Positions 12,901 to 60,491 of a stretch of DNA of 64,000 nucleotides are shown here, piece after piece. A program made the position numbers and the translations under genes. The stretch's first letter is position 1; each line of letters starts with the position of its first letter. Below the pieces are notes generated by a model. That model was given only the letters and a program-made list of their open reading frames with translations. It was not told the DNA's origin and ran no database searches. Source of the DNA: Ostreococcus lucimarinus (taxonomy: Eukaryota); the NCBI GenBank assembly GCA_000092065.1, contig CP000600.1; one strand, given 5' to 3'.

Positions 12901-13938
12901 CAAACATCGGCGATCGATGTGAACTACACCGTGACCTCGACGACGATCGAAAGTGTGTTAGAAGTCGCCAATCAAACCAACTCTGCTGTGACCACGACGC
13001 AAGGCGAAGTTTATGATGACTTACGCGCCGCCGGTTTGATCATCAGCGATGCCGTGATATTGTTGGAAGCACAAACTACTGAGAAAGCATCAGCGTTGGC
13101 ACCTTCGGGGCCATACGACATCAACGTCAACCTTCATCTTGACGTCGACGTCCACGTGGACAATGCGCCAGCGTCGCGTGAGCCTACGAGTTCAACACCT
13201 GGGGGAAATCCAGCTGACACGGAAGGCGGATATCCCTCGACGCCCACGTCATCCTATCCGGCGGGCGGATATCCCTCGACGCCCACGTCATCCTATCCGG
13301 CGGGCGGATATCCCTCGACGCCCACGTCATCCTATCCGGCGGGCGGATATCCCTCGACGCCCACGTCATCCTATCCGGCGGGCGGATATCCCTCGACGCC
13401 CACGTCATCCTATCCGGCGGCGCCTTCTGACTGTGTTCCAGTGAACACGGAAACAGAAGCGGCGCAATACTATCGAAACGAGTCGTTACAACACGAGGCA
13501 CTCGAAACGGCGCAGTCCTACGCTCGTCAAAATGATTTACCACTTCCGGACGCGCACACCTTTGTTCGTGCAAAGGTTTGCAACGCACCGCACATGCGAT
13601 GTTGCTCTGAGTTGAACTGGCGACAAGACAATCGAGTGAGATTTCCATTTGTCTGCGGTGACAGCGCGGGATGCGCAAAGAAGACGTTCGACGTCGCTAG
13701 AAAGAATTGTGTCGCCAGAGGTGGTGACTTGTGCCGCGGAAACGCGGTGAGTACGTCGATGCACGATCCATCGTGCGTGGGCACTAAGTCAGATTACGTA
13801 TGGACGCTCACGCACTGCGATGTCAATGGCGTGCACGGTCGCGTCATTCGTCCGAGCGCCGGCGGCGCGCCCGGAGCACTTTGCGAGACGAATCTGATGG
13901 CAAACCATCAGTCGAGATGCTGCTCCAACGTGTGTTGA
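3934..13938 (+). CDS. giant secreted/cell-surface mucin-like glycoprotein with PAN/apple modules, Pro-rich tandem repeats and Cys-rich C-terminal domains
   Basis: Single 3334-codon ORF. It has a hydrophobic signal-like stretch (IAALVGACVVMCV), two PAN/apple-like Cys modules (CRGFNYFE..., CQFVHSPDC...), Ser/Thr/Pro-rich stretches and a PPPPPSPPPPPK motif. About 130 copies of PVPGE[AT]PNAYPTQS / PNAYPT[PS]S repeats are present. A conserved roughly 45-aa module occurs four times. The C-terminal domain has about 16 Cys. The exact start is uncertain because about 70 Arg/Ala-rich codons precede the signal-like segment. Confidence 0.7.
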   Translation: MRAPMVTRGRPTRARAMDAESRRAMTAARRHRAARASARADADARRADADAKAARRRARGRATRGRARASIRATIAALVGACVVMCVPRGGCAAEGVDAHGAVAKRTSTNTKSEGVGGMLNEISELVERQRAFEDAHEGCENVRLVLLEAPKRGRVSIALRDGSKLWQRFEFRDAGAQTTCVDLSEPNDFEITTAGARGDDDEYSIRVEKETGDALLMRLGADDENGEAHTTYAALKLRTASGKNVGVLGDRFESCEDVVVDTAFARHAGVARSMQHRLLDDSGDLLSKWTSHATGQKKMCLLRGRDYTLHLNGAMSRGRVDDQLAVRVTREEGDESDGFTYLTTRSQAMVNDKNDVYIGVQDATQDNIDLRGVYHFHIPSACAMDEVELSVVLKASKYGDSVPPEGMSWIVQDEAGSLVMKTAKRFRTQDYGVTRHQSMCVPKGKYEFIAFASDKRGWKYGTELKIYQRLQGGKRQLLASRGGNEEASARGFSAPWFSGALISEPIELSVGTEQSAVASQDEPSVKIAFQGPKALLGNARFVPSRALVRADVMAIISACVAVCALVALHNDTKDGDGEVKISLVDGKANSAYGTDTAKKTDVGEHVSRSSSGKSHGLVSRSSYLKIVAVGASALSVMAIGSIGSVRLDETSRLGNSTVRQATCGMGVTKCQFVHSPDCRSKTMYAYRSGKLAHDPLLVLPYESSILDGSSIAAEIKFDANFCAVQGMKTCNDLGDTSADTLTGCSQACRAKDGCESFSLQSTVCRLCSTEHVSRSVATSTVSVARCMRPYQFAFQGVSLDECAKACDDTAACRGFNYFERSHAMSSHCSLLRAPAHFEAHVWRDSARTKSGIVGAATYYKVPSMGTLCKERGEAVQAPALPSGLGIGDSADDAVITSRDGYPHDNFYAGDKGYPNDEARPPNHDDSDFVADFMITSEIELIGVTVHSLESNDVSRRAFVKGLAIFFGITSDEVVIMDVTPSQDVGTSHGVHVAFVILTTSSHKMSQVVGDIKSVLDEPNDEVRLLFNGAGLTVTKATFQEPPLVTEQEASPSPTASDELVTNVSTTVEGKPVAPTANTTQTPSNVTENEPVATNLPPTSIPGADLAITGALQIVGYTPEEFDATARERLRRSMLTFFMAHNDDISIALMQNASLVEGTQVAYKMKENNPHKATIIVEALLLMQEPSAISENFLHVLHFKGLTNVQTSLTIGHPRVVLEKHMPPPPPSPPPPPKTIVMVQNITKTINVVQSALELKGINVQTFNEAKKDFLKAGLSEFMSKVLQRTVTSDLIRVLSVSGQGYIKYFDTNIVSSGDVAQLGISSSNVKVNYEVIVGEEEDAKTMALLNELSGGTSTPISRDVDQDVYPSEADAYPSEADAYPARSPPIESDDQYPSSTSNSDSSLVTNDLLGTLLLDIKENGLAEVEEIEIEELPVAKKQEVSEQVEIEVLAPETSTPVTEEEELTDLNDDETIETNFLKALDEIKVLSNASDAEVYLVDSVLRIDGYDMNTFDAVSRNAFTAGMARFLGIAFAHVRIIDVTVVHTSTGRRLLTDLLDVEFVAELPTEESANAVAQEITDLMDSENAEAIQNELMTDLQEAGLDQVTNGEMTQVPVISSASSEPSSPVPGETPNAYPTQSPVPGETPNAYPTQSPVPGEAPNAYPTSSPNAYPTQSPVPGEAPNAYPTQSPVPGEAPNAYPTPSPNAYPTQSPVPGEAPNAYPTQSPVPGEAPNAYPTPSPNAYPTQSPVPGEAPNAYPTQSPVPGETPNAYPTSSPNAYPTQSPVPGEAPNAYPTQSPVPGEAPNAYPTPSPNAYPTQSPVPGEAPNAYPTQSPVPGETPNAYPTSSPNAYPTQSPVPGEAPNAYPTPSPNAYPTQSPVPGEAPNAYPTQSPVPGEAPNAYPTPSPNAYPTQSPVPGEAPNAYPTQSPVPGETPNAYPTSSPNAYPTQSPVPGEAPNAYPTQSPVPGETPNAYPTSSPNAYPTQSPVPGEAPNAYPTQSPVPGEAPNAYPTPSPNAYPTPSPVPGETPNAYPTQSPVPGEAPNAYPTQSPVPGETPNAYPTSSPNAYPTQSPVPGEAPNAYPTQSPVPGETPNAYPTSSPNAYPTQSPVPGEAPNAYPTQSPVPGETPNAYPTPSPNAYPTQSPVPGEAPNAYPTQSPVPGEAPNAYPTPSPNAYPTQSPVPGEAPNAYPTQSPVPGEAPNAYPTPSPNAYPTQSPVPGEAPNAYPTPSPNAYPTPSPSAYPTPSPEGPCEAVCAALNSKSGPNNTASCDIHFGCVFDHTQMSGQGACISFAAGGDEPCPSRADWDAIVPGQDCNTENTPTCARLFYGDEYDNAVAGTLPEDWVGDWSAVPTPEPSVPSDSHPTTDSHASFYPASSPVPGETPNAYPTSSPNAYDVGTMSYEEYVKTYGEDLDEIASAYPTPSPVPGEAPNAYPTSSPNAYPTQSPVPGEAPNAYPTQSPVPGEAPNAYPTSSPNAYDVGTMSYEEYVKTYGEDLDEIASAYPTPSPVPGEAPNAYPTSSPNAYPTQSPVPGEAPNAYPTQSPVPGEAPNAYPTSSPNAYDVGTMSYEEYVKTYGEDLDEIASAYPTPSPVPGEAPNAYPTSSPNAYPTQSPVPGEAPNAYPTQSPVPGEAPNAYPTSSPNAYPTQSPVPGEAPNAYPTQSPVPGETPNAYPTSSPNAYPTQSPVPGEAPNAYPTQSPVPGETPNAYPTQSPVPGKAPNAYPTSSPNAYPTQSPVPGEAPNAYPTQSPVPGETPNAYPTSSPNAYPTQSPVPGEAPNAYPTQSPVPGETPNAYPTPSPVPGETPNAYPTPSPVPGETPNAYPTPSPVPGETPNAYPTPSPVPGEAPNAYPTQSPVPGEAPNAYPTQSPVPGETPNAYPTSSPNAYPTQSPVPGETPNAYPTPSPSAFPTPSPVPGETPAVGPTYSEPIAQIVYETKSVVRLVGYHAGAFGETQSRLFKVGMATFYKVAPEDISISSVKDVVSSSSRRLLQTSAIDVNYTVTSTTIESVLEVANQTNSAVTTTQGEVYDDLRAAGLIISDAVILLEAQTTEKASALAPSGPYDINVNLHLDVDVHVDNAPASREPTSSTPGGNPADTEGGYPSTPTSSYPAGGYPSTPTSSYPAGGYPSTPTSSYPAGGYPSTPTSSYPAGGYPSTPTSSYPAAPSDCVPVNTETEAAQYYRNESLQHEALETAQSYARQNDLPLPDAHTFVRAKVCNAPHMRCCSELNWRQDNRVRFPFVCGDSAGCAKKTFDVARKNCVARGGDLCRGNAVSTSMHDPSCVGTKSDYVWTLTHCDVNGVHGRVIRPSAGGAPGALCETNLMANHQSRCCSNVC
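8805..10670 (+). repeat. coding tandem repeat array 1 (42-nt and 24-nt units encoding PVPGE[AT]PNAYPTQS and PNAYPT[PS]S)
   Basis: Near-identical units run for about 1.9 kb. All six frames are open, which generates several spurious 600-aa ORFs in the track. Confidence 0.9.
11055..12690 (+). repeat. coding tandem repeat array 2, including a 249-nt higher-order repeat x3 (about 11106..11852)
   Basis: The same 42/24-nt units as array 1. Three copies of a 249-nt superunit each encode YDVGTMSYEEYVKTYGEDLDEIASAYPTPS. The phased small ORFs at 11171, 11420 and 11669 confirm the 249-nt period. Confidence 0.9.
13226..13420 (+). repeat. 39-nt coding repeat x5 (GGYPSTPTSSYPA)
   Basis: Five perfect copies of ggcggatatccctcgacgcccacgtcatcctatccggcg. 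Confidence 0.85.
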
Positions 13939-13978
13939 GCGAATCAAAAGATAAATTCACATGTAAACTAAACCAATG

Positions 13979-15052
13979 CTATATAGACCTCATGTCATCG
14001 AGCAGTAATTCGGCGAGGAAACTCGTCGCCGGCCCCACGCGCCCATCGCCTACCTGCCGTCCATCCCACGAAATGATTCCCTGCACACCCACCGCACTGC
14101 CGACGAGCATGGCTTCCTCAGCGCCCAGCACGACGAACGGGGATAACGGCTGTGAATCGTCGAAGCGTTTTATTCCCACCTTTCGGAGCGCTTTGCGATT
14201 GCTTTCGGTTTCGATCAACTCTCGCAGTCTTTGTATGGTGATTCCTCCGAGAACATTCGTCGCTGGTGGCGTTCGTAACGTGCCGTCTGGAGTCAGGAAC
14301 GCTACGTTCGCGCCAGGTCCTTCGCCAATCATTCCGTCTTGCGTCAAAAATACGCCGACATCGACCCCGTTCCCTCGCGCAATCTGAGCTACGTTTACGT
14401 TGGGCAAGTAATTCGTCGACTTCAACGTCGCGTAACGAGGCGGTTTGATCGGCACCGGCGACGACGACGCCGTTAACCCGCGCACAACCATCCAAGCGTC
14501 TGGATCCTTCTCGTACGCCACGACGTAATACGTCGGCGGCGAATCCGTCGCGCCGCACAGCGAAAAATTCTCCGACTCGCACCCGCTCGTCGCGTACATC
14601 CGAACTTGCCCGTGCGTCACGCCGCCCCGCGCCACGACTTCCAGCACCAGCGCCTCCATCGTCGCCAGCGCCTCGTCGTTCATCTCGCCGACGCCCGCCT
14701 CCCGCGCGCTTCGCGCGAATCTTCTCAGGTGCGCCGCCAACAGATGGCACCGTCCCTCGTGCACCGTGCACGCGTCGAACACGGCGTGCCCGCGCGTGAA
14801 TCCACGGTCGTACAGTCGCATCACCGGCGCGCATCGCGCGTCGTTCACTCGCACGATGACGTCCAGCGCGCCGTCGTACACCGCGCCGCGCATGGTCGCC
14901 GCCGCGTCGTGCTGCGCCACGAGGCGCCGCGCCACCTCTCTCGCGTACGCATCCGCGTCCACGACGCGCGTCGCGCGCGCCGTCGTTCGACGCGTCGTCG
15001 CGCGCGCGCGTCCCGCGACGCGCGGCGCGGCGCGCGCGCGAGCCGTCGTCAT
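13979..15052 (-). CDS. class IV (fold-type IV) PLP aminotransferase: branched-chain/D-amino-acid aminotransferase or ADC-lyase family
   Basis: 357-codon ORF with a transit-peptide-like N-terminus. The family is recognisable in the C-terminal half (GVFLTQDGMIGEGPGANVAFLTPDGTLRTPPATNVLGGITIQRL...). The gene is tail-to-tail with the giant gene, with only 40 bp between them. Confidence 0.65.
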   Translation of the reverse strand: MTTARARAAPRVAGRARATTRRTTARATRVVDADAYAREVARRLVAQHDAAATMRGAVYDGALDVIVRVNDARCAPVMRLYDRGFTRGHAVFDACTVHEGRCHLLAAHLRRFARSAREAGVGEMNDEALATMEALVLEVVARGGVTHGQVRMYATSGCESENFSLCGATDSPPTYYVVAYEKDPDAWMVVRGLTASSSPVPIKPPRYATLKSTNYLPNVNVAQIARGNGVDVGVFLTQDGMIGEGPGANVAFLTPDGTLRTPPATNVLGGITIQRLRELIETESNRKALRKVGIKRFDDSQPLSPFVVLGAEEAMLVGSAVGVQGIISWDGRQVGDGRVGPATSFLAELLLDDMRSI

Positions 15053-15106
15053 GCACTCGCGCGTCGACGCGCGACGAACTCGCGTCGCGACGCGCGTGCC
15101 GCGCGA

Positions 15107-15160
15107 TAACCCTAACCCTAACCCTAACCCTAGTCCTAACCCTAATTTACAAACCCTAAT
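15107..15160. promoter_or_regulatory. interstitial telomere-like (CCCTAA)n tract with an AAACCCTAA telo-box in a bidirectional promoter
   Basis: The sequence ataaccctaaccctaaccctaaccctagtcctaaccctaatttacaaaccctaatac lies inside the 128-bp spacer between the divergent ATGs at 15052 (minus) and 15181 (plus). Confidence 0.6.
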
Positions 15161-15180
15161 ACTTTATACCGCGACGCGCG

Positions 15181-16635
15181 ATGCGCGACGCGCGCGACGA
15201 CGACTTTCTCGATTGGATGCGCGCGCGCGGGGTGACGCGCGACGACGCGCGGTGCGCGGTGCGCGGCGACGGCGACCGCGGACGATTCGTCGAGTGCGCG
15301 CGCGCGACGCTGGCGGTCGGGACGACGCTGGCGACGATACCGAAGAGCGCGTGCCTGACGACGGCGACGAGCGCGCTGGGCGCCATCGAGGGCGCGCGCG
15401 GAAGCGGGGTCGTCGGTCTGTGCGTCGCGGTGGCGCACGAGCGGTCGTTGGGAGCGAAATCGACGTTTGCGGCGTATTTAAAGACGCTGCCGGCGCGAGA
15501 GGCGCTGCCGTCGACGTTCGCGGCGGACGACGAGGCGCGGAGAGCGCTGCGGGGGACGACGGTGGAGGGGATGCTCGGGGCGGACGAACGCGCCATCGCG
15601 GATGATTATCACGCGTTCGCGCGCGAGATGAAGGAGCGATTCGCGCGGCGCGGCGTGAAGATGCCGACGCTGGAGGAGTTCAGGGACGCGGCGACGCTCG
15701 TCGCGAGTCGCGCGTTCTTCGTGGACGACGCGCTCGGGCAGGGGTTGGTGCCTTTCGCTGATTTGTTTAATCATAAAGGCGGTTCAGACGGCGCTCATTT
15801 TAACGTCGTTGGATGCGATGACGCGGACGCGGATGCGCTGACGCTGGTGACGTGTCGAACGGCGAAGCGGGGCGAAGAATTATTCAACTCGTTCGGCGAC
15901 GACCACGACAACACCGTGTTGTTGTATAAATATGGGTTTGTCGAACGCGATAATCGCGTCGCTACGAGTTCATTCGGCTTTGGGCTGTTGCGCGACGCCG
16001 GCGACATCTCGTTCGAGAGCGTTCATAGTTGGATGACTGAGAGTTACGACGGGGTGGATGAGCTCGAAGTCGACGCCAACGGCGCCATGTCGCGCCCACT
16101 TTTAGCTTTACTTCGAATCGCGTCGTTCGAATTTCTTAGAGACGTGGACAGCGGTGATGACGAAAGTCATTCGGACGATGTAGACTATGATACATCGATC
16201 GGCGTTTTGCTCGAGCGCACGATGGCCGGAGACGAGTCCGAGGCTGAGATTCTGGCGAGTGTCGACGACTACGTCGTACTGGCGTTATTTCGTGGAAGAT
16301 TCAACGCATATCTCGACACAAAAGACGAAGATCGTTGTGATGACGATGTTTCATCTTTGTTACGAGATGTAGCGCGCGAGATCAAACGATGCGCAGACTT
16401 GGCGAATGATGCGAGCGGAGTACGTCAACAGTTTGGGTCTGGGATAAGCGGCGTGGCCGCTGCGTATCACGTTCGCGCGGACGAGCTCGGGTTACTCATG
16501 AAAGCAATAATTCGCGCGTTTGACTTCGGAGACGACGAAGAAACCAACGAAGACGTTCCAGATACAAAAAAGCCCAAATTAGTAGAAGTGGTGCCAGCGT
16601 ACGCGCCGACCATTTACATCAAACCGAAAGAGTAG
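15181..16635 (+). CDS. SET-domain protein-lysine methyltransferase, Rubisco-LSMT/SETD6-like
   Basis: SET core motifs are present (FFVDDALGQGLVPFADLFNHKGG...GEELFNSFG...LLYKYGF) with an LSMT-type C-terminal extension. The ATG at 15181 gives a family-typical N-terminus. Confidence 0.7.
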   Translation: MRDARDDDFLDWMRARGVTRDDARCAVRGDGDRGRFVECARATLAVGTTLATIPKSACLTTATSALGAIEGARGSGVVGLCVAVAHERSLGAKSTFAAYLKTLPAREALPSTFAADDEARRALRGTTVEGMLGADERAIADDYHAFAREMKERFARRGVKMPTLEEFRDAATLVASRAFFVDDALGQGLVPFADLFNHKGGSDGAHFNVVGCDDADADALTLVTCRTAKRGEELFNSFGDDHDNTVLLYKYGFVERDNRVATSSFGFGLLRDAGDISFESVHSWMTESYDGVDELEVDANGAMSRPLLALLRIASFEFLRDVDSGDDESHSDDVDYDTSIGVLLERTMAGDESEAEILASVDDYVVLALFRGRFNAYLDTKDEDRCDDDVSSLLRDVAREIKRCADLANDASGVRQQFGSGISGVAAAYHVRADELGLLMKAIIRAFDFGDDEETNEDVPDTKKPKLVEVVPAYAPTIYIKPKE

Positions 16636-16672
16636 AAATGCTATTTGAAAACTTCTAACGGTACCGGTAGTT

Positions 16673-18247
16673 TCACGTTGCATCTTTCAGCATTTGCACG
16701 AGGTCGTGCTTGATTCTGTTCAACTTGGTGTTCTTTGTGATGAGTTCGTTTTCGACGTCTTGACGAACACTCTCGATTTGGTTCGCGTGACACTCTCGTT
16801 CTTCATCCAAAATGCGACGCCAATATTCATCTCTTTCCGCGCTCGCGCGCGCGGCGGCTTCGCGCGTCGCGTCCCCTATTTCTAACCGCATCACTTCCGT
16901 CGCGTCGTCGTGCGTCAGGTGCATCATTTTCAAGTTCAACGAGAGTCGCTCGTGTTCAGCTTGAAGCATCGCGAGTTCTTTGCGATGTTCACCTCCGATC
17001 GCCTCCAGTCGTCTCGTGAGCTGCGCAACGCGAACTTCAGCGCGATCGAGTCGTTCTTTCAATTCTCGCGACGCCCCTTTGTTACCGAGCGAAACGGTGC
17101 TCGGTGATGTTTTTGAACGAGATTCGCTTGCTTCCAAAGCCGCCGCGGCAACAGCTTCACGCTTCTCCGCGCGTTCAGCGCGATGTTGCGTTTCCAACAG
17201 CCGCGCGCCGACGTCTTGAAGCTCAGCTCTCGTCGTCGTCAACGCCTCGAGCGCGCACTCGAGCTCTAAAACTAACATTTTATTCCCCGTGCCACCTTCG
17301 CCGACGCCGACTGCCGCGTCGTTCGGACGCATTTGCTTTAATGTCTCCGCCGCGTTTTTCCATTCGAGCGCTTCCGCCTTCGCGCTCGTCAAAGCCTCAT
17401 TCAGCGCCGTCGTTTCTTCCGCCAAGCCATTAGCCTCCGATTTCGACTTCGCGAGCGCCTGGCGCAAGTCACTGATCTCCGCCGTCAACAGCGCGTGCGC
17501 CTCGTCGTGATCTCGCAGTCTCCGCGCGCTCGACTCCGTCTCCGCTTGTAAGCGCGCCAACAACGCCTCCCGCATCGTCGCCTCTGACTTGGCCGCCTCT
17601 AACACCGCATCCAGCGTTCTAAAGTCCTCCAGCACCGCCTCCGCGTCCGCGAGCGTCATCTTCACCCCTCCCTCGCTCGCCGTCTTCCCCTCCCTCGCCC
17701 GCTCGACGAAGCGTTCCAGCGCGCGCCGCTCCCCTCCCCGTTCCGCCGCCGCGTACGCCGAAACCATCCTCGTCCCTCCCATCGCGTCCGCGCTCTCTCC
17801 GAAATCATCCCTCGCGCTCGTCTCGATCGTCGCGCACCCCGCCGCGGCTAAGATCAACCCGCGCGTTCGCGCGCGCTCCTCCTCTCGCCGTCTTCGCTCG
17901 GCGTCGAGCGCGCTCGTCGCCCGCAGCGCGTTCGTCTCCGCCTCCACCAACCGCGCGCGCGCGCGCGCCAGCTCATCGACGTCCTCCGCGCGAACGTCCG
18001 TCTCCCGCGCGTCCCCGCGTCCCGCGCGCGCGTCCACCGTCGCATCCGTCGCGTCGTCGTCGCCGAATGAAATCCACGCCTGTCGCGCGTCCCGCGCCGT
18101 CGCGCCCTCGCGCGTCGTCCCCGCGTCGCCCGCGTCGCCGTCGTCGCTCGCGGACATTATCGCGGACGCGCGCGCGGTCGCACGTCGCGCGCGCGGTCGC
18201 GATCTCGCGCGATCGACGCGCGATCGAGTGCGGATTGATGAATTCAA
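16673..18247 (-). CDS. hypothetical long coiled-coil protein
   Basis: 524-codon ORF with extended heptad-like Ala/Glu/Leu/Arg-rich sequence and a conserved-looking C-terminus. The 5' end is uncertain; an internal ATG near 18157 is an alternative start. Confidence 0.45.
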   Translation of the reverse strand: MNSSIRTRSRVDRARSRPRARRATARASAIMSASDDGDAGDAGTTREGATARDARQAWISFGDDDATDATVDARAGRGDARETDVRAEDVDELARARARLVEAETNALRATSALDAERRRREEERARTRGLILAAAGCATIETSARDDFGESADAMGGTRMVSAYAAAERGGERRALERFVERAREGKTASEGGVKMTLADAEAVLEDFRTLDAVLEAAKSEATMREALLARLQAETESSARRLRDHDEAHALLTAEISDLRQALAKSKSEANGLAEETTALNEALTSAKAEALEWKNAAETLKQMRPNDAAVGVGEGGTGNKMLVLELECALEALTTTRAELQDVGARLLETQHRAERAEKREAVAAAALEASESRSKTSPSTVSLGNKGASRELKERLDRAEVRVAQLTRRLEAIGGEHRKELAMLQAEHERLSLNLKMMHLTHDDATEVMRLEIGDATREAAARASAERDEYWRRILDEERECHANQIESVRQDVENELITKNTKLNRIKHDLVQMLKDAT

Positions 18248-18305: not shown

Positions 18306-19997
18306 ATGCTCGCGAGGGCGCTCGCGCGCGCGCGCGGGCGCGAGCGCGGCGAAAAATTTCGCATCGATCTGCGACCGGTCGATCTGACGTGGCGCGCGAT
18401 CGACGACGACGACGACGCGCGATCGCGATTTCGCGTGCGATGGTCGCGCGGGGCCAAGGTGCAGCGCACGACGACGGCGACGGCGACGGCGGGACGCGCG
18501 AACTGGGAGACGACGAGCGAGGACGGGGGGTGGACGACGGCGGTGGTGACGCTGCGACGGCGCGCGGCGCGCGACGGAGGGACGACGTTCGAGGCGAAGG
18601 CGTTCGACGTGAAGGCGGAGCGGGCGCGCGGCGACGGCGACGGCGAGGACGACGCGTTCGCGACGACGGCGAAGGCGAGCGTGGATTTCGCGAGATTCGC
18701 GACCGTGGAGACGGGAGGAGGATTGGGAGGGGAGGAGGCGTGCGTGATGACGCTGACGGTGAAGGATGGCGCGCGAGGCGTGGGAGGGGCGAAAACGATG
18801 ACGCTGCGGTGCCGAATACGGGCGACGTGGTTGAAGAATTACGCGAACGCGTCGGCGGACGGTGCGACGGAGCTGAGCATGGTGAGCGGCTTGGAGAGCG
18901 AGAGCTCCGCAGTGACGGATGCGACGCCTCCGAATCTGTTGCGAGAACAAGATTTAAGCGGATTTCAACAGCTTTTGAGCCCGGTGGCGGAGAGCGTTTC
19001 GCCCGTAATCGTGCGGCAGAGCGAGCGTCGCGAAGAACAGGCGCGTGCGGAGCTCGAGGCGCAGCGACGACTCAATGCGGACATGGAGGTGAGACTTGAG
19101 GCAGTGAGAAATGAACTCGAGAAGACGAAAGAAGAGCTCGCGACGCAGCGACGCGCGGTCGAGAACGAGTCGGCTCGCGCTCAATCAGAAATAGCGGCGG
19201 CGAAGGAGGAGGCGCAGAAAACGCTGCGCGAGAAGGAGCGCGCCATCGACAGAGTTCTTTCTGACATCGCGGCGATTGAAAAGGAACGGAACGCGGCTGT
19301 GCGAGCGAGTAAGGATCAAGGTTTTCATATCGAAGCTTTGGAACGTTCTCTTCGAGAAAGAGACTCGGACATCGCGCGGTTGAAGAGTCTAAAAGACACA
19401 GACGAAGCTACGGCGACGCTGGAGGCCGAGCGAATCGCACATTCGCGCGAGATTGAGCGATATAAATCGCAGTTGGACGCCGCGGACACACAGATCGAAA
19501 CATTGAGCAGAAGTCATAAGAACGCGCACGCTGCATTTCAGCGAAAATTAGATTCGCAGCTGAAACTTCGCGCTGAAGCCGAGAAGGTCTTCGAACGCGA
19601 GTTGGAGCAAAAGCACGTCGAGTGCGATGACTTGCGTCAGCAGTGCTCAAACATTGTCGCAGAAACTACCGCACTCACCACGGCATTGAAGCGTTCCGCG
19701 GATGAGCAGCACCGCGCGTCGACGAACACGGCAAAGGCGGAAGCCGCGCAGGCAAAGTGTGACTTGCGAGCCGTCTCCGAGGAGCTGTGCGACGTGCGTA
19801 AGGTTCTCGATGCGCATGTTATCGAGTTAGTCGAGGCAAAGTTGAATTTGGCCGAGTCGCAAGGCTCGCAGCTCGTATTGCGCCGAGAGTTGGCTCGTAC
19901 CAAAGGCAAGCTTACAGAATATGCAGCGCGCTGCACGCGCATGGAGAGTATGTACGCGACTATTATCGATGAATCTACCGGCACTACAGAAACTTAG
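18306..19997 (+). CDS. NT-C2 (EEIG1/EHBP1 N-terminal C2-like) domain protein with a C-terminal coiled coil
   Basis: ORF 17589..19997. The 5' 717 nt are antisense to the neighbouring gene and low complexity, so they were trimmed to the ATG at 18306. After that the sequence EKFRIDLRPVDLTWR...FRVRWSRGAKVQRT...EAKAFDVKAE...ASVDFARFAT resembles an NT-C2 domain, followed by about 330 aa of coiled coil. Confidence 0.45.
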   Translation: MLARALARARGRERGEKFRIDLRPVDLTWRAIDDDDDARSRFRVRWSRGAKVQRTTTATATAGRANWETTSEDGGWTTAVVTLRRRAARDGGTTFEAKAFDVKAERARGDGDGEDDAFATTAKASVDFARFATVETGGGLGGEEACVMTLTVKDGARGVGGAKTMTLRCRIRATWLKNYANASADGATELSMVSGLESESSAVTDATPPNLLREQDLSGFQQLLSPVAESVSPVIVRQSERREEQARAELEAQRRLNADMEVRLEAVRNELEKTKEELATQRRAVENESARAQSEIAAAKEEAQKTLREKERAIDRVLSDIAAIEKERNAAVRASKDQGFHIEALERSLRERDSDIARLKSLKDTDEATATLEAERIAHSREIERYKSQLDAADTQIETLSRSHKNAHAAFQRKLDSQLKLRAEAEKVFERELEQKHVECDDLRQQCSNIVAETTALTTALKRSADEQHRASTNTAKAEAAQAKCDLRAVSEELCDVRKVLDAHVIELVEAKLNLAESQGSQLVLRRELARTKGKLTEYAARCTRMESMYATIIDESTGTTET

Positions 19998-20054
19998 CTA
20001 AGAATTAGTATTCATTGTGGAAACAATTGTTTTCGACTCTACTGCGTGGTTTCT

Positions 20055-23000
20055 CTATCGTGCGCCAGAGGACGCACATCCCGTCGTGGAGGCGCTGTAG
20101 CCTTCGTTACACGTGCAGGTCGGTACGTTCGCATCGTTAAGCCCGCAAGTTCCGAAACCAGAACACGTCGTTCCCGCCGCGACGTCGTATCCAGGGCATT
20201 TGATGACGCAATAATCTCCAAGTTCGGTGGTGGTAGTGTCGAAAATCCCAGCGCACGTGACGCGCAGCTGCGCCGGATCTTGCTTGCACGCATCGCCCAA
20301 ACTCGCGTCTGGATCGCCGGTGAGGTACCATTTGCCCTTACACACACTCGGCCGCATGCTTTCGTAAAGCTCATCGAGGTACGCGACAGAGTAATCGTTT
20401 TTGTATTGTCTGTAGTAGTTGAACAGCGAGATTTGACGTTGTTCTTCGGCATTCACGTCCACAAACGTCCCGATACCAAACGAATCGAACCGAATGGACT
20501 CGCCCACAACTGTGGCCGAAGGATCCACTGCTTCTTGAACGTAATAGTCGGCTCGCACCAAAATTTCTGTGAGCGACGCCAAGCACCAAGCAAGATCGCT
20601 AAATGTGGCAGGGTTACCAGTCCGCGATAGACGGTTCGCCACAACTGCCTCGTAAACCTCTGGATAAACATCAAAGTCGAGGCGATCTCGCGCAATCTCT
20701 CTACCACTCGATTGCTGTAGTACTGTACCACCATCACTTCGACCAGTCGTATCTGTGACGATGGGTATGTCTGCAGCTAAGTTAAGCGTCGCCGCCGTCA
20801 AACCGGAAAATGGGTCATAGGGATTACCTGAGGTTCGAGTGGTGTAGACCGTTCCGTCCATGTAATGCACAGCGGGATCATTCGACCACTTGAACCCTGA
20901 AAGGACTGGCTCCAGGTTTTTCCATCCTGCACTTTCCAAGAGATCAACCTTGAAATTCAAACCGCATCTCGCCGCAGAGCAAGACGTCGGCGGATACCCC
21001 TTTTGATCAGAGTCAATTTTATATCCAAGAAAGACTTGCGGTGTGTTGAGGTACTGTTCCACGATTGCTATGGTCTGCGCACGCGAGAGTTGCTGATTCA
21101 GCCCGAGCTCTGGGAAATTTGTTCGGCTCCAATTATACACTTGATCGCGAGAACCCCACACTGGCACTTCGCGGTTGTACCGCGGTCGACCGCCCATGAG
21201 AATGATATCGTACGCCGATGTTTGATGCGCCTCCACATGCGCGGTCCCCGCGTTTGCCGCAGAATTTGCCGCTGACTCCACCATATACAATGAATACGTT
21301 ATCGAAGCGCCGTATGCATTTTTACTCAGCAAATCACCCGTGAATTTTTCGGGTGCGCGCAAGTACGCGAGTCCGTTCGTGGAATCGTCCGTCAACTTGT
21401 CCGTGAGGTGTAGATATCCGCTTATCCCTTCCCAGAGTAACCCGCTGTCGCCACCTGCGAACGCAAAATTGCACTCTCCGCGCATCAATTGCTCCGAATT
21501 GATCGCGAACGGGTCGTAGACATTGCCAGATAAAATTGATTCGGCGAGCTCACCCGAGCACGAATTATTGTACACCGTCCAGCCCTCTGGTCCCTCCGTG
21601 AATTCAGATTTGACGATGAATGAAGAAGCCTCGGGCCGAGAGCAGTCGACAAACGACCAACCATCTTGACATGCACACGATCCGTCCATCTGACAGTAGC
21701 CATTAACGCAAGGGTTACATTGAACATCGCAAGACAACCCAGTCCAACCGACGTCGCATTTGCACGTACCGTCGGTGAGGCAAGCGCCGTGATCGTAATT
21801 GCATGGGAGACATTCCGTAAAATTTCGAATGTCACAAGTCGTGCCCAACCATCCTTTATTGCAAAGGCAAGTGCTGTCTGCTTGGCACGCGCCGTTGTGG
21901 CACGGAGCACAGGGTACGAAACAATCTTCGCCAGAATATTGTACCCCTCCATCGTCGGTACCGCACACGCAAGTCCCGTCTCGCTTGCAGAATCCCCATG
22001 ATCGAATCTGCACTCCGTGTGCGGTCGTTTTGATGACTTCGGAAACACTACCATCTTCATTTGTGGCGTACTCTTTGAAGCAATTGCAGGACTTGTCACA
22101 CCTTTCTCCGTACCAACCGGTTTCACATTCGCACTTGCCATTCAGTTGACACGTCCCGTGATCTGGATCACACGCGTCGCACGCAATGGAACATGTTGTT
22201 CCCGTATAGGCGCCTGTTAATCCGGAATTCACACCGTGGATAAGCGTATTGATGATCCAAATCATTGTACGATCCGCGCCTGTCGTGCGCGTGGTCACAT
22301 ATTCTCCACTAGTCGCATCGTACATACCCGCTAGGAAGACGTTCATCAAACGCTGTCGCTCGTCTTTACTGTTTGTGTACCAGCGCTCCTGATCGGATGA
22401 CTCTGTCGCTATTTTTAGATCTACTCGAGTGGCTCCGATTGCTTCTTTACGCATCCGTAAGAAATGCGCCTTCAATGCGTCGTCGCAGTCCCAAGGATTG
22501 GCAGCTTCCCAGTCGTCGCCGCAGTTTGTGGTCGACGCGAGCGAAGCCATGCATTCGCCCGTCGTTGCGTCATTTTTATAGTCCAATTTCGAACAGATAT
22601 CGTCCGCGCGCATTGATTCGGGGATGTTGACAATGTCGTTTTGATACTGCAGAAGCTGCGCCTCGAGTGCGGTGCGAGTGGCTGCCCCAACGGCGTCAGC
22701 GGCGGTGGTTACACCGTACCGAAAGTACGTTTCATTTGGTCTGAAGGGTAACTTGGAATCAATTGTGCGGCTCGCGCAGTCAGGGCGATCAGCGCATACG
22801 GAATCGACGCCCCAGACGTAGTCTTCCACTTGAATCGCACTCATGTAATAAGGAGGAATGTACTCTCCCGAAGCTAGTTCACCGTTGGTTGCGTAATGTG
22901 GATCGCGATCAAGACGCAGAGCGAATGAGTGATCTCTAAGCCGTCTCGTTCCGTCGCACAGGCAACTACCGTCGTACTGACACGTGCCGTGAACACACGG

Positions 23001-27825: not shown

Positions 27826-29361
27826 ATGGAGTCGCTGGCGCGCGCGGTGATGACGTCGATACCGCCGAACGCGATCGATCGACAGCGCGTGTGCGAGGTG
27901 ATCGGAAGGGCGGAGGGGGCGCGAGCGAGCGGACGACACCGAGACGCGGCGAAGATGTTGATCGACGTCGGAGGGGCGCTGACGCGGTTGCAACACGAGA
28001 CGGCGGTGGCGGTGGCGGAGCAGGCGTTTCAGTGCGCGGTGCAACAGGCGAGGTTGAACGATGAGGACGTGCCGGAGTACATGAAGAACGCGACGGAAGG
28101 GTCGAACGCGGAGCTGGGGGAGGCGTACGCGAGCCTCGGGAACTGCGAGCGCGCGTTGGGCAAGTTGGCGGACGCGGAGGGGCATTATAAGGCGGCGGTG
28201 AAAGCGGTTGAGGATGATGGATTGGAGCCGTTTTCTAATAAGTTCGTCCTTCGAGTGATGGTGACGAGAGTTCGAAAGGATTTCCAGAAACATGAACAAT
28301 TGTGCGACGCGTGGGAGGAGACGATTCGCAAGGCGGCGCGCGAGGGCACGGAGAGTCAAACCGCGCTCTTGGCGGCGACTGGAATCTGTTTGCAAGAGCG
28401 CGCCGGTGGGATGGCGGAACAAAAGAAGTTTAACGAAGCGGCAGAGCTGCGAGGCGGGAAGTTTTTGGAGACTGTGCTTCGCTTACAGGCGCACGGCTTG
28501 CGCACCAAGCCCGACGTGTTGCTGCCAAACGTGTACGATTCCATCGCGGCTTTGTATCTCCAAGCGAAAGACATTAAGAAGGCGCTCGGATTTTTGCACA
28601 GAGCTGTGGCGTCAACGGCGTGTACGGAGTGCTACGGCGATAAATTTATACCCGAGGGCGAAACGCGGGGGATCAAAGCCGAGGGCAAGTGGGACGATGT
28701 GTGCTGGCACCCGTCCCTTTTAGCGTCAAAAAAGGGTGTGGAACAAGACGAGGTGGATGTCGTCCCGCGCGCACCGTGGGAGGTGAGCCCGGAGGAGAAG
28801 AAAATCATCGACCAAATTTTAGGCGTCGGCGATAAGTGGACGATGAAGAAGGGTAAGGAAGGTCCGGAGCCGGCGCGAGGGGCCAACGCGCTCGGGCACA
28901 TCCTGTACACGCTCGGCAACCATCTCATGCAGGCAGCAAAGTGGGAAGAAGCCGGTCGTCCCTTGAAGACCGCAGCTGCGATGTTACAGAACGATTTGGA
29001 TATGCAAGGGAACTGTTTTCACTTGCTCGGCGTCGTTCACTTTCAGATCGCCAAGCTTCCCATGAATAGAGCGCGGGTGAAGGAGATTTTGCCGCGCGCG
29101 GCGAGCTCGTTTGCCTTGGCCGCAGATTGTAGAATCGTCGATGGCAAGTGTACAAAGAAAGGTGCAGCCGAATCGATTAACTCTCTATTGTTCTTAGGTC
29201 GATGCATGTTCGAACTCGGCGAGTTTGAGCAAACAGAACAAGTCACCGCTCAAGCCATCAGCCTCGGCCGACAAGTGCTCGGCGACAACGCTAAGGAAAC
29301 CAACGAGGCCATCAAGGCGATGATGGAGTTTAAACGCCAGATGTCGATGATGGGTCGATGA
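27826..29361 (+). CDS. TPR-like repeat protein (hypothetical)
   Basis: ORF 27055..29361 trimmed to the ATG at 27826 (MESLARAV...). It has an amphipathic helical-repeat composition and TPR-like A/G/Y/L periodicity (EAYASLGNCERALGKLADAEGHYKAAVKA). Confidence 0.5.
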   Translation: MESLARAVMTSIPPNAIDRQRVCEVIGRAEGARASGRHRDAAKMLIDVGGALTRLQHETAVAVAEQAFQCAVQQARLNDEDVPEYMKNATEGSNAELGEAYASLGNCERALGKLADAEGHYKAAVKAVEDDGLEPFSNKFVLRVMVTRVRKDFQKHEQLCDAWEETIRKAAREGTESQTALLAATGICLQERAGGMAEQKKFNEAAELRGGKFLETVLRLQAHGLRTKPDVLLPNVYDSIAALYLQAKDIKKALGFLHRAVASTACTECYGDKFIPEGETRGIKAEGKWDDVCWHPSLLASKKGVEQDEVDVVPRAPWEVSPEEKKIIDQILGVGDKWTMKKGKEGPEPARGANALGHILYTLGNHLMQAAKWEEAGRPLKTAAAMLQNDLDMQGNCFHLLGVVHFQIAKLPMNRARVKEILPRAASSFALAADCRIVDGKCTKKGAAESINSLLFLGRCMFELGEFEQTEQVTAQAISLGRQVLGDNAKETNEAIKAMMEFKRQMSMMGR

Positions 29362-29487
29362 TGGGACGATGAACGTAGCTTAGTAGTTAAATGTCGGATT
29401 TCAACAATCAATAATATGTCTATCTAGAAAAAATCGAGTCTACTGTAAAAATCTGCGTCAAAACAATTCTCCAGTTGTGTAAGGCCG

Positions 29488-31503
29488 TCACACGGTTTGG
29501 AAATCTTTCTTGGCGACGGGGTCGTCGTCTCCGTCTCTGTTCCCCGTCAACGCAGAAAGCGGCATGTATTGCTTGGACGTTCTACGCAATGCATTGAAGG
29601 CGAAAAAATGAATCCCAATTTGAAGCAAGTATTGCGCCATGATTTGTATTCCGACTTTCACGTCTTCGAACGCATACAGCTCGAGCACGGCGGCGCCAGT
29701 CTCCAAACATCTCGTAGTGCTAGACTCGCACGAGAAAGCAATAGGATCGCCACCGAATTCGTTCGACACGAGAGCGGAGTACGCATAGAATATTGGGTCC
29801 ATGAAGCGAATCCAACGCGCCCCAGCTGGGATGGAATCGATGTTCAAGTAAATGCCTCCGAAGAGCGTGAAAATTGTAATGCACGCTGGACCCAAGGCTA
29901 AAGCGGCGCCGATCGGCATCGCACTCGCCATGAGCAATCCGAGCGCGGTGAGCGACATAGCCTCGGCGATGATGATGGCGACAAAAATCCAAAAGTTGTA
30001 CTGCGTCTTACGCAGTCCGACGATCCAATACACGAGCGCGCAAAAGATCAATCTGGGAATCAATCTTGGGAGCTCCGTAACGTACTTGGACATGTAATAG
30101 GACGACCATTTGTACGCACCTGACGCGCGCTCTCTGACGACGATCCCTTTTTCTCCCGCAAACACGTTGATCGCTGGAAGTGCACTGGTGTAAGCGACGT
30201 TTAAGACGACGAAAAACAAGCAACCAATTCTATCTTGGACACCCTTTTGGTCGTGGCCGACGCCTCTGAAGAGCGCAGAAACGATGAGCGCGTACATCAT
30301 CTCCAAAGCTAACGTCACGCGAACGCCGATAAAGTCGCGTCTTTGATTTATCAATCCTCTTCGAACGAGCAAGACAAACTGCTGTATCCACGACGCGTGC
30401 GTGGGATCGTACTCCGTGGGGGCGGCGCTTCGAGCGCGATGCTGTTTGAGCGCAGACGCCACTGCCTTTTCGCCGAGACGCCTCGTCATCGCTTCAGTCG
30501 CGAAAAATTCTATTCTTTCTCTGCTCGACTTTTCTCGCTCGGGATTTCGCGCGTCCAAGGAGGTGATGTCCATGAAGTAATCCGCGGGGTTGGTGAGATT
30601 CGGGCACTCAAAGCGCAGCGACGCAAAGTAACCGACCGCGTCCTTGGCCTCGCCGATATACAGCAGCCGCCCTTCACTAATCAGCAACAACTGATCGAAC
30701 ATTCCATAAATCGACGAGCGCGGCTGATGAATCGTACACACGACCGTTCGTCCGACCGCCGCGAGCTGCCTGAGGGCGTAGACCACGCGCTGCGCCTGAA
30801 ACGAATCCAACCCACTCGTCGGCTCGTCCAAAAACAACGCCTCGGGATCGCCCACCATCTCGACGCCGATATTAACGCGTTTTCTCTCCCCCCCGCTCAC
30901 TCCTCGAGGTAATCCGCCCGGCCGCCCCACCGGACTCGCTCTGACCTTCGCCAAGCCGAGCTCCGCCACGATTTCCTCCACGCTCGCCGCCACCTCCGCC
31001 TCCGACAACCGCGCCCTCCGCAATCGACAGTGCAGCGTCAGCGTCTCCTCCACGCTCAAGAATGGAAACAGCAGTTCCTCCTGCATCACGTACGCCACCT
31101 TCTCCCGCATGAACGTCTCGTCTCGCCCCGCGTCGTCCACCGTGATCGTCCCTCGCAGCGTCCCCCCCAGCGGCGTCCGTCCCGCCAGCGCGTTCAACAG
31201 CGACGTCTTCCCGCTCCCCGTCGGTCCCATGAGCGCCAGCACTTCTCCCGGTCTCGCGCTCCCCGTGACGTCGCGCAGGATCGTCTTCGTCGTCGTCGCC
31301 TTTTCGCCGTCTCGCGTCGTCTCGACCTCGTACCGCAGCCGCTCGAACGCGAACGTCGCCCCGGCGCGCGCGCGGTTCGCGCCAAGCGTCGTCGACGCGC
31401 GGTGCAGCGCCTCGCGCGCGTACGCCTCGCGCACGTCCTCCGCGCTCGGGCGTCCCATCGCGTCGGCGCGTCGACGTGTGGCGACCGACCGCCCTTTTCT
31501 CAC
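29488..31503 (-). CDS. ABC transporter G family half-transporter (White/ABCG)
   Basis: Walker A (GPTGSGKTSLLNALAGR), ABC signature (VSGGERKRVNIG), Walker B (LFLDEPTSGLD) and the ABCG-typical IHQPRSSIY are present. A six-helix membrane domain follows. Confidence 0.85.
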   Translation of the reverse strand: MRKGRSVATRRRADAMGRPSAEDVREAYAREALHRASTTLGANRARAGATFAFERLRYEVETTRDGEKATTTKTILRDVTGSARPGEVLALMGPTGSGKTSLLNALAGRTPLGGTLRGTITVDDAGRDETFMREKVAYVMQEELLFPFLSVEETLTLHCRLRRARLSEAEVAASVEEIVAELGLAKVRASPVGRPGGLPRGVSGGERKRVNIGVEMVGDPEALFLDEPTSGLDSFQAQRVVYALRQLAAVGRTVVCTIHQPRSSIYGMFDQLLLISEGRLLYIGEAKDAVGYFASLRFECPNLTNPADYFMDITSLDARNPEREKSSRERIEFFATEAMTRRLGEKAVASALKQHRARSAAPTEYDPTHASWIQQFVLLVRRGLINQRRDFIGVRVTLALEMMYALIVSALFRGVGHDQKGVQDRIGCLFFVVLNVAYTSALPAINVFAGEKGIVVRERASGAYKWSSYYMSKYVTELPRLIPRLIFCALVYWIVGLRKTQYNFWIFVAIIIAEAMSLTALGLLMASAMPIGAALALGPACITIFTLFGGIYLNIDSIPAGARWIRFMDPIFYAYSALVSNEFGGDPIAFSCESSTTRCLETGAAVLELYAFEDVKVGIQIMAQYLLQIGIHFFAFNALRRTSKQYMPLSALTGNRDGDDDPVAKKDFQTV

Positions 31504-37990: not shown

Positions 37991-38034
37991 GGGTGTGACG
38001 CCGCAGAGCGCGACGGCGAGCGCGCGCGCGCGGC

Positions 38035-42849: not shown

Positions 42850-43037
42850 CGCGCGCGGGAGCGCGCGTCGCGCGTCGCGTCGCGTCGCTCGACGCGCTCG
42901 CGTCGCGGTCGCGCTCGCGTCGCGCTGTGCGGGACGACGGATCGATCGCCGCGCGCGTCGGCGTCGGATAACCTCACGGCGCGACGCGCGACGCGCGCTC
43001 CGCGAGCGCGCGTCGAGCGACGACGACGACGCGCGCG

Positions 43038-44138
43038 ATGACGACGATGATGACGCGCGCGACGGCGACGACGCGCGCGACGGCGGGCGGACGCGCGAGC
43101 GGGAGCGCGGACGCGCGGACGACGCGACGCGTCGCGATGCCGAGCCGGGACGCGGCGACGACGGCGCGCGCGCGACGCGACGCGCGAGCGCGAGCGATGA
43201 AGCGGGTGTTCATCGATGGCGAGGCCGGAACCACGGGGCTTCAGGTGCGCGAACGGTTGGAGGCGCGAGGGGACGTCGAGCTGATTCAACTGGATGAGGG
43301 CTCGAGAAAGAATCTCGAGGCGAGACGCGCGGCGTTGAACGAGTGCGACGCGGCGATTCTGTGCCTTCCCGATCAGGCGGCGGAGGAGGCGGTGAAATTG
43401 GTGGAGAATGAGACGACGGTGGTGATCGATGCGTCGACGGCTTTTCGCGTCGCCGATGGTTGGACGTACGGATTCCCGGAGCTGGCGCCAGGGCATCGAG
43501 AGTTGGTCAAGGCGTCGAAGAGAATCTCAAATCCGGGGTGCTATCCCACCGGGTTCATCGCACTCACTAGACCATTGGTTGACGCGGGCATCCTGTCTCC
43601 AGGCGCGGCGTTGACGGTGAACGCGGTGAGCGGGTACACGGGCGGCGGTAAGGCGCTCATCAAGGTGTACGAGGAGGAAGAACACGAGCCGTGGGGCGCT
43701 TACGGATTTAATCTCGAACACAAGCACTTGCCAGAGATGGCGAAATGGAGCATGATCGGTCGTGAACCAATTTTCATGCCATCTGTCGGTTCCTTCGCGC
43801 AAGGTATGGTGGTGAGCGTACCGTTGCATTACGATCAACTTGCCGCCGACGCTCGCAGCGCCAAGCGTCTGCATGAGTGCTTACGCGCGCGGTACGCGCA
43901 GAGTACGTACGTTTCGGTGCGAGATTTGAACAAGATGGACGACCTCGAGCGTGGAGCTTTCATGAGACCAGACTCTTTGGCGAACACGAACAAGCTCGAG
44001 TTAAGTGTTTACGCCAACGACTCAAAGCGAACCGCCGTTCTCGTGGCAAGGTTAGATAATTTGGGCAAAGGTGCTTCGGGTGCGGCGGTGCAAAACATGA
44101 ACTTGGCGCTTGGACTGGATGAAACAATGGGATTGTAG
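43038..44138 (+). CDS. argC: N-acetyl-gamma-glutamyl-phosphate reductase (ArgC), with presequence
   Basis: Rossmann N-terminus MKRVFIDGEAGTTGLQ, catalytic-Cys motif ISNPGCYPTGFIALTRPLV and NAVSGYTGGGK are present. The Thr/Arg/Ala-rich N-terminal 55 aa look like a transit peptide. Confidence 0.7.
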   Translation: MTTMMTRATATTRATAGGRASGSADARTTRRVAMPSRDAATTARARRDARARAMKRVFIDGEAGTTGLQVRERLEARGDVELIQLDEGSRKNLEARRAALNECDAAILCLPDQAAEEAVKLVENETTVVIDASTAFRVADGWTYGFPELAPGHRELVKASKRISNPGCYPTGFIALTRPLVDAGILSPGAALTVNAVSGYTGGGKALIKVYEEEEHEPWGAYGFNLEHKHLPEMAKWSMIGREPIFMPSVGSFAQGMVVSVPLHYDQLAADARSAKRLHECLRARYAQSTYVSVRDLNKMDDLERGAFMRPDSLANTNKLELSVYANDSKRTAVLVARLDNLGKGASGAAVQNMNLALGLDETMGL

Positions 44139-44263
44139 GCATTACGAGACAGTATGTTAACATATTATGCTAAGATATACCACGATGAACCATGAAAATA
44201 TTATAGTACCACTAGAATCGTAGTGGCAGAGAATCAGAGCGACGCGCGGTCGCACAAGCTATC

Positions 44264-58208: not shown

Positions 58209-59144
58209 ACCGCGAGCGAGAGCGACATTTGTAATATCAACCAACGAAGCCGACGCAACGCGCAGCGCGTACGGTGAATGCGGTACGCGCTCGACGCCCA
58301 ATTCAACTCGCATCGTCCGACGAACGCTAAGTCTTTACGTACAAGCCGAAATTAAACGCGCCGACGTCGGCCGGCGCGCGCGACGCGACGCGCGACGTTG
58401 ACCGAGCTCACCCCGAATCGGCGTCCGATGTCGACGAAAAGTTAGGACAAGCTAGAACGTGTAACTCTCGTGTCGTCACAAAAGTTTCGGCGACGTTCGC
58501 GCCGTCGAGCGGTGCGAAGTCGCGCCGAACCATCGCGAGCAAACCATCACACACCATCTCAAATGATGCAAAATCCATCATTCGGGCGCTTAAATCGCGT
58601 CCGAATTCGACGAAAAGTTGGGAAAAGCTGGAGAACGAAAAGTTCTCGCCGTCGGCGCGAAAAGCATAAAGAAACCAAGCGATACCGGGGGTTCCTGACG
58701 TCTTCCGACATCGGTACTTATCCGGCCCACGCGGTCTTAACTGAGAAGTTCCGATGGGTTTCTGTGATTTTCCGCGGGTGTGGTCGCTTGATGACACCAT
58801 GTGCCGCACGACCCTTTAGCCGCGCACCACGCGGGGTCACGGCGCGAACGTTACGGGTACTTTTGACGCCGTGTCGGTACTTTAAGAGTCGAAAACCTAT
58901 ACATTCACAAAATGCACCCCTCAATTATCGCGTCATCGCATCGCCGCTCGCGATTAGGCGCTTAAAAACCTCGATGTACGTGAATTCATCGCCCTTTTTT
59001 CGTTTCGTTCCCTGACTTTACCCTGTTTACCCCGTCTGACTGTTTACCCATAGATACCATAGAATTCAAGCGGTCGCAAACAACAACACGGATCCCCACC
59101 CCCCCTCGACACGCGCGCATGCCCCCCTGTGCCGCGGTCGTTGA

Positions 59145-60350: not shown

Positions 60351-60491
60351 GCACGCGCGCATTGTTGGAATATTATCCTCTTCATCACGATTTCAAACGA
60401 TGATTTCATTTAATTAAACTGTTTCTAAATTCCTCAACTCATGAACGCTTGCAAGCATTTTTTGCGTACGACGCCGCGCCGCGCTATGGAT

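Follow-up and report, generated by a model that had tools for sequence, protein, structure and literature searches.

A hypervariable telomere-like repeat in a divergent gene spacer of Ostreococcus lucimarinus, probably a young and species-specific microsatellite

The short spacer that separates two divergently transcribed genes of Ostreococcus lucimarinus contains a tract of AACCCT units resembling telomeric DNA. We analysed this tract in a 64-kb stretch of O. lucimarinus DNA (hereafter the window), in further contigs of the same species and in the orthologous spacers of related algae. It is probably a compound hexanucleotide microsatellite that is young and restricted to this species, with (AACCCT)n followed by a degenerate tail; it would evolve by slippage and microhomology-mediated indels and would be fixed, and tolerated, in a promoter spacer older than itself. 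The best reading of the tract is, in effect, that of a short interstitial telomere-like repeat. It is the only one of its kind in the window, it is absent from the orthologous spacers, and it is hypervariable within the species.

The tract, its flanking genes and the host telomere unit

Direct reading of the spacer revealed six AACCCT units at positions 15108-15143, one of them degenerate (AGTCCT), and a tail that extends towards the SET-domain gene (Table 1). Tandem Repeats Finder reported a repeat of period 6 at 15107-15145, with 6.5 copies, 87% matches and a score of 64. The tract thereby fits the definition of a hexanucleotide microsatellite, namely head-to-tail units of 1-6 nt in at least four copies. 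The telomere-type hexamers and the exact plant telo-box described here in the initial annotation are both present, as five CCCTAA and one AAACCCTAA. The tail also carries a TATA-like string on the minus strand, TATAAAG, which may be a functional element, judging by its sequence.

Table 1. Position of the tract, of its parts and of neighbouring features in the window.
Feature	Position	Strand	Remarks
Giant ORF, 3334 aa	3934-13938	+	Largely tandem repeats
Class IV aminotransferase, 4-amino-4-deoxychorismate-lyase-like, 357-aa ORF	13979-15052	-	Pfam PF01063 Aminotran_4, E=3.3e-27
N-terminal extension of the aminotransferase	14894-15052	-	53 residues preceding M54
CG-rich left part of the spacer	15053-15107		Invariant in 25/25 O. 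lucimarinus-type contigs (alignments and regex extraction)
AT	from 15106		Precedes the first AACCCT unit; spacer context ...GCGCGAT
(AACCCT)x4, perfect units	15108-15131	+	Sequence read, Tandem Repeats Finder
G4 motif (G3N1-7)3G3	15110-15130	-	(TTAGGG)n
AGTCCT	15132-15137	+	Degenerate unit
AACCCT	15138-15143	+	Final perfect unit
AATTTAC	15144-15150	+	Between the repeat units and AAACCCTAA
AAACCCTAA	15151-15159	+	Exact plant telo-box 9-mer; equals 9 nt of a host-type heptamer array
T ACTTTATAC	15160-15169		Directly 3' of AAACCCTAA
CGCGACGCGCG	15170-15180		Directly before the SET ATG at 15181
Hypervariable SET-proximal part of the tract	15132-15168	+	AGTCCT, AACCCT, AATTTAC, AAACCCTAA, TACTTTATA
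TATAAAG, TATA-like string	15162-15168	-	CTTTATA on the plus strand; lies ~110 nt before the aminotransferase ATG
CG-rich right edge of the spacer, CCGCGACGCGCG	15169-15180		Invariant
SETD6-like SET-domain gene, 484 aa	15181-16635	+	Exact match to XP_001422546.1 ('SET domain-containing protein')
5S rRNA gene	58674-58791	-	Rfam RF00001, 71 bits

The spacer is bounded on its left by the start codon of the aminotransferase and on its right by that of the SET gene, and the tract thus lies in the shared 5' region of a divergent pair, as had been annotated. The exact aminotransferase protein was found on 276 contigs, and a shorter NCBI model of 304 aa (XP_001422707.1), which starts at M54, falls in the same cluster. 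The spacer length of 128 bp given by the initial annotation holds from ATG to ATG for the 357-aa ORF, but it becomes 287 bp with the NCBI model. The N-terminal extension that makes the difference is rich in Arg, Ala and Thr and resembles a transit peptide, and its frame has stayed open in the relatives, whose products measure 349-370 aa. Since the relatives keep this extension open, the annotated aminotransferase start probably lies too far downstream. As for the second gene, described as Rubisco-LSMT-like, its product is indeed a SET protein, but its best match among solved structures is human SETD6 (PDB 3qxy, E=2.6e-10) and we therefore regard it as SETD6-like, not specifically Rubisco-LSMT-like. 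JGI names its homologues SETD6 as well, and the N-termini of the relatives' SET proteins align at the same start as the ORF beginning at 15181.

Two other features of the neighbourhood were recorded. The giant ORF on the far side of the aminotransferase gene consists largely of 42/66/108-bp tandem repeats of the PNAYPTQSPVPGE type and is rich in Pro, Thr and Ser. Its called length varies greatly across O. lucimarinus contigs, from 2041 to more than 3093 aa, so that a second hypervariable repeat stands directly beside the aminotransferase gene. In an Rfam scan, the surroundings of the tract yielded neither an ncRNA nor a Pol III gene; the sole match in the window was the 5S rRNA gene, located 43 kb away among protein-coding genes. 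The USE consensus of snRNA/Pol III genes in O. lucimarinus, CCCRTAA, is present in 716 genome copies (Fajkus et al. 2021), and one inserted purine separates it from the CCCTAA found at 15110-15159 in the tract. This resemblance is probably coincidental, because no ncRNA gene lies near the tract.

Motif recurrence was measured over the 64 kb of the window, out of a 13-Mb genome, and over the orthologous loci. All five exact CCCTAA hexamers of the window are located inside the tract, and so are all 6 matches to AACCCTA, against 1.39 expected; a count of 6 was reached in 0 of 100 shuffles. AAACCCTAA occurs once in the window, in the spacer, and the dimer CCCTAACCCTAA with at most 2 mismatches was found 6 times against 0.73 expected. 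No telomere-like word was detected outside the tract in these 64 kb (~25 genes), where the other promoters lack the motif. The heptamer dimer was absent from the whole window, and a search of the window for further copies of the tract flanks, as for a MITE-like element, found none.

The tract also forms an AT-rich island, with a GC content of 38% that ranks in the lowest 1.2% of the 60-mers of the window. It stands in a 5'-5' spacer, whereas two other 5'-5' spacers that were read, a 44-bp one at 37991-38034 and a 188-bp one at 42850-43037, consist purely of CG-rich sequence and contain no such element; the tract is therefore atypical of promoters in this stretch of the genome. The AT-rich 60-mers that were checked against ORF ends (13907-14023, 16598-16701 and 19945-20064) are all at gene-end junctions, and further AT-rich 60-bp islands occur at 29353-29490, 44107-44244 and 60347-60474. 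The intergenic regions of this genome look compositionally asymmetric, with CG-rich 5'-5' spacers and AT-rich gene-end junctions.

Exact protein matches (XP_001422546.1, XP_001422714.1 and XP_001422715.1) assign the window to O. lucimarinus CCE9901. The telomere motif of O. lucimarinus is CCCTAAA/TTTAGGG (PMC8287931 Table 1; PMC11106453), a motif general in Mamiellophyceae (PMC8287931 Table 1; PMC11106453; PMC3318450), and O. lucimarinus POT1 binds GGGTTTAGGGT (PMC2794166). The host unit being a heptamer, a tract built on 6-nt units is not host-type; the initial annotation had foreseen a foreign-type repeat in the event that the two units differed, and this is the case. Host-type sequence is matched, within the tract of the window, by AAACCCTAA alone, and the heptamer dimer was found in none of the 16 tract alleles described below.

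Orthologous spacers and variation within the species

The divergent aminotransferase/SET pair is conserved in O. tauri and in four other lineages of Mamiellales. In the closest lineage, L004, protein identity amounts to 88% for SET and 94% for the aminotransferase, and L018 and L019/20 show ~39-42% SET identity. The pair is conserved together with both outer neighbours in L004, L018 and L019; L016/17 have the SET gene with an upstream minus-strand ORF. O. tauri was represented by L021 (GCA_002158475.1), L022/23 being O. tauri-like contigs. P0004 (a SET fragment with 91% identity) and L005 (77%) have no upstream sequence and were left out of the spacer comparison.

The spacers of the relatives measure 34, 105, 66, 207 and 222 bp, the 34-bp spacer being that of L004. 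Neither CCCTAA nor AACCCTA nor AAACCCTA was found in the orthologous spacers of L004, L016-L020 and L021-L023. Between ...GAACTCGCG and CGATG... the O. lucimarinus spacer exceeds that of L004 by ~95 bp, which correspond to the tract and to CG-rich filler. The orthologous site is thus empty in L004 and in the outgroups, as is required of an interstitial telomeric sequence (ITS), and the tract can be placed as a gain on the O. lucimarinus branch, since all outgroups are empty. A protein search at the 90%-identity cluster level found no lineage with 94-99% aminotransferase identity; the gain can therefore be dated only to after the split from the closest sampled relative. The initial annotation had named a recent insertion, absent from other strains, as grounds against its own reading, and our result agrees with this in spirit, at the level of the species and not of the strain. 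As the spacers of the relatives lack the tract, the spacer must have served as a promoter before the tract arose, and it can do so without it.

Variation within the species was assessed on 25 O. lucimarinus-type copies, 23 of them independent, since the window, L001 and L002 do not differ anywhere. These contigs were retrieved via the aminotransferase protein, a SET variant, a metagenome word scan and earlier look-ups. The 23 independent contigs displayed 16 tract alleles and spacers of 111-128 bp, with 55 invariant bp to the left of the tract and 12 to the right. The only sequence common to all 16 alleles is AACCCTAACCCTAACCCTA, that is the first three units and an A. Perfect leading units number 3 to 7 per allele, and since some alleles have no more than three, the first four units cannot be regarded as invariant. 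Fourth and fifth units carry A-to-G and C-to-T changes (AGCCCT, AGTCCT), and the tails are scrambled, with duplications of ACTTT or ACTTTAAT, a 14-nt ATTTACAAACCCTA block that is present or absent and, in one allele, ACTTTACAAATACTTTTTTCCCATA. From contig to contig the tract changes by substitutions, by gain or loss of units and by indels of 3-17 bp. This variation is one-sided: the left boundary is constant and the right side scrambled.

In a 2657-bp alignment of 13 copies, nearly all columns of 15133-15166 vary, whereas the remaining 2623 bp contain 12 variable sites. Rough estimates of theta gave ~22 for the tract under the infinite-alleles model versus ~0.0015 (Watterson) per flanking site, a flank diversity biased downward by retrieval through identical flanking proteins. 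Polymorphism is thus far above that of the flanks, as defines a microsatellite, and the mutation rate of the tract locus would exceed the per-base rate of the flanks by roughly four orders of magnitude, as is usual among microsatellites. That the variation is not assembly noise follows from the recurrence of several alleles across independent assemblies (four times for the L013 type, three times each for the L009 and L146 types). No empty allele was encountered among the 23 independent contigs. The metagenome scan with a 27-nt word of the left flank yielded 2 contigs and, with them, two added alleles, none of which is empty.

Proposed history of the tract and alternative readings

We propose that the tract was gained in the short 5' spacer shared by an old, conserved pair, the ADC-lyase-like aminotransferase and the SETD6-like methyltransferase genes, after O. 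lucimarinus had split from its closest sampled relative, and that it has since become fixed in the species. Per locus, it would mutate about ten thousand times faster than one flanking base. Changes would occur by slippage, with gain or loss of units, by base changes within units and, at the SET-proximal edge of the tract, by small duplications and deletions between short repeats, as expected from microhomology-mediated indels. In doing so the tract would lengthen the spacer, cause its length to vary and add an AT-richer patch to an otherwise CG-rich sequence. We infer that it evolves by this mutational mechanism close to neutrality, and that it arose either by birth of a microsatellite from a seed or by a filler/repair insertion. 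A seed extended by slippage and a heptamer insert that has degenerated, of which CAAACCCTAA might be the relic, appear equally possible.

With regard to function, the tract is most likely a tolerated insert, which would at most modulate a promoter that the relatives run without it. Since it shifts the spacing of the start codons by up to 17 bp and since TATAAAG is present on the minus strand in 11 of the 16 alleles, the tract may modulate the expression of the flanking genes.

Compatible with the microsatellite reading, and concerning its origin, is a repair scar: a single event at a double-strand break, in which telomerase acted or telomeric DNA was captured, would have put the tract in place, and degeneration would have followed. 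We regard this origin as possible, if doubtful. One-step insertion at double-strand breaks and VNTR polymorphism are known from short ITSs of primates, rodents and horse (PMC7215372, PMC2246262), and the hallmark used in these studies, an occupied site in one species with empty orthologous positions in its relatives, is what we observed. A host-type fragment, AAACCCTAA or CAAACCCT, moreover survives in some alleles. However, host telomerase makes CCCTAAA heptamers, whereas the array is hexameric and no allele contains a heptamer dimer. The insertion relative to L004 also comprises ~40 bp of non-telomeric, CG-rich sequence, and the direct repeat that flanks it is a common word with 26 copies in the window. 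This word, CGCGACGCGCG, is found on both sides of the tract (15086-15096 and 15170-15180), and transposition with a target-site duplication was considered on that account; as it is a common low-complexity word, we claim no target-site duplication. A viral or foreign source gained no support: (AACCCT)4A gave >120 matches in IMG/VR contigs, none of them in an Ostreococcus-like CG-rich context. The same scan returned several long arrays near the ends of viral genome records of 135-290 kb.

The tract could alternatively be a selected structural or tunable element, which we consider unlikely. At least four TTAGGG units would form a G-quadruplex on the minus strand, and an i-motif on the plus strand, at the start of the aminotransferase transcription unit; they would affect transcription or translation and stall replication forks, with one-sided error-prone repair as a consequence, or else the tract would act as a tuning knob of expression. 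The G4 motif matches in 16/16 alleles, all of which retain four or more C3 runs separated by loops of at most 7 nt, and it is the only G4 motif of the window with TTA loops. Such motifs, searched as (G3+N1-7)x4 on both strands, are depleted in the window, with 5 observed against 15.9 ± 3.6 in shuffles of local composition. The one-sided variation and the fixation of the tract are also in keeping with a structural role, and this fixation and the four or more C3 runs of every allele could reflect selection rather than mere youth. Yet four retained C3 runs are equally expected from shared ancestry of an array of 6-7 units, 16 alleles from related haplotypes are too few to demonstrate constraint, and the two genes are expressed in the relatives with no motif of this kind. 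That selection maintains (TTAGGG)≥4 as a G4/i-motif element, and that this element itself causes the one-sided hypermutation next to it, seems quite improbable. If true, a wild marine picoalga with an otherwise G4-depleted genome would offer a natural, population-scale case of a promoter tuning knob or of polar instability driven by G4.

The initial annotation saw in the tract an ancient telo-box of the green lineage at the core of a bidirectional promoter, that is a conserved cis-element of plant type recruiting telomere-repeat-binding Myb factors and then Polycomb or activators. Our data make this very unlikely. The exact AAACCCTAA does precede the SET ATG by 22-30 nt, and it has the sense orientation that plant telo-boxes typically show. 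In addition, two TRFL-type Myb proteins (XP_001421395.1 and XP_001416857.1; PMC3400083) and PRC2 subunits (PMC8788455) have been reported in O. lucimarinus, and a factor could therefore conceivably bind to the tract. But AAACCCTAA is carried by only 2 of the 16 alleles (5 of the 23 contigs) and the 8-mer AAACCCTA by 3 of the 16, and the motif, which should be conserved at orthologous promoters, is missing from all orthologous spacers, including that of O. tauri. Nor is there a second instance in the 64 kb and ~25 genes of the window, where 1.39 AACCCTA are expected by chance. The hexamer array is also devoid of the GGGTTT core of the host-type repeat, which we take to be the target of RTBP1/TBP1-type Myb domains. 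Finally, the TRB proteins, which in Arabidopsis connect telo-boxes with Polycomb, are reported to originate in Streptophyta, the family being traced to Klebsormidiophyceae/Streptophyta (bioRxiv 10.1101/2022.11.23.517682).

A scaffold mis-join or an assembled chromosome end, both envisaged by the initial annotation, or the scar of an ancestral chromosome fusion could be suspected from the telomere-like sequence itself and from one metagenome contig (L151) that is chimeric or rearranged nearby, but conserved synteny refutes them and leaves them a negligible probability: flanks and gene order on either side are the same in the 25 contigs, which come from independent assemblies, four chromosome-scale JGI contigs (543-560 kb) place the locus ~240 kb inside, gene order is conserved in species without the tract, and the array is neither at a sequence end nor at a synteny break. 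L151 (ENA ERZ17101349 NODE_786850, positions 1-1393) follows the normal locus to ~75 nt inside the aminotransferase CDS and continues with a raffinose-synthase-like ORF (PF05691). We considered it as a second tract-bearing locus with a different upstream neighbour and discarded it, the junction being inside the aminotransferase CDS and not at the tract. Either L151 was assembled chimerically, at CG-rich low-complexity sequence, or it reflects a genuine rearrangement.

Comparison with known systems

The microsatellite of O. lucimarinus resembles several systems in part. Like the plant telo-box, AAACCCTA(A), which is bound by Myb proteins of the TRB and TRFL types, it presents an exact, sense-oriented 9-mer a short distance before a start codon, in an organism of the green lineage. 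In contrast to the plant element, its match is not conserved at orthologues, is found in a minority of alleles and does not recur in 64 kb; the TRB family has not been reported outside Streptophyta, and the plant telo-box derives from the heptamer whereas the bulk of the tract is hexameric. The resemblance of the tract to the plant telo-box is therefore confined to the string itself. Finding a telo-box string in the promoter of a chlorophyte is thus not evidence for an ancient plant telo-box system: in O. lucimarinus the 9-mer is younger than the species split and associated with a non-host unit, and most alleles have already lost it.

Tandem repeats in yeast promoters act as 'tuning knobs' of expression that favour evolvability. 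The O. lucimarinus tract is comparable to them as a hypervariable, AT-richer tandem repeat located in a short spacer whose length differs among isolates; the tract is a single locus, not a demonstrated class in its genome. With the human-telomere-type G-quadruplex, (GGGTTA)3GGG, it shares a canonical motif on the minus strand of every allele, a match at the level of sequence only. The locus provides a marker of ~50 bp, extremely polymorphic between invariant flanks, that could resolve O. lucimarinus strains directly in metagenomes, and it is a candidate site for measuring mutation associated with microsatellites or G4 motifs in mutation-accumulation lines of Mamiellophyceae.

The vertebrate short ITSs (Nergadze/Giulotto: PMC2246262, PMC7215372, PMC8537989) are likewise internal TTAGGG/CCCTAA arrays of <100 bp, filled in one lineage and empty at the orthologous site of its relatives, with polymorphic alleles of the hexanucleotide VNTR type. 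The internal position and intact flanking synteny of ITSs are found here too, ~240 kb inside and between the same neighbours as in the relatives. They differ in that the vertebrate unit is the product of the host telomerase, whereas O. lucimarinus makes TTTAGGG and the array is no copy of the host telomere. We accordingly classify the tract as a telomere-like promoter microsatellite, which lacks one defining feature of an ITS, a unit identical to that of the host telomere (6-nt array versus CCCTAAA). For horse ITSs 2-6 alleles have been reported, and the O. lucimarinus tract, with its 16 alleles in 23 samples, is far more diverse.
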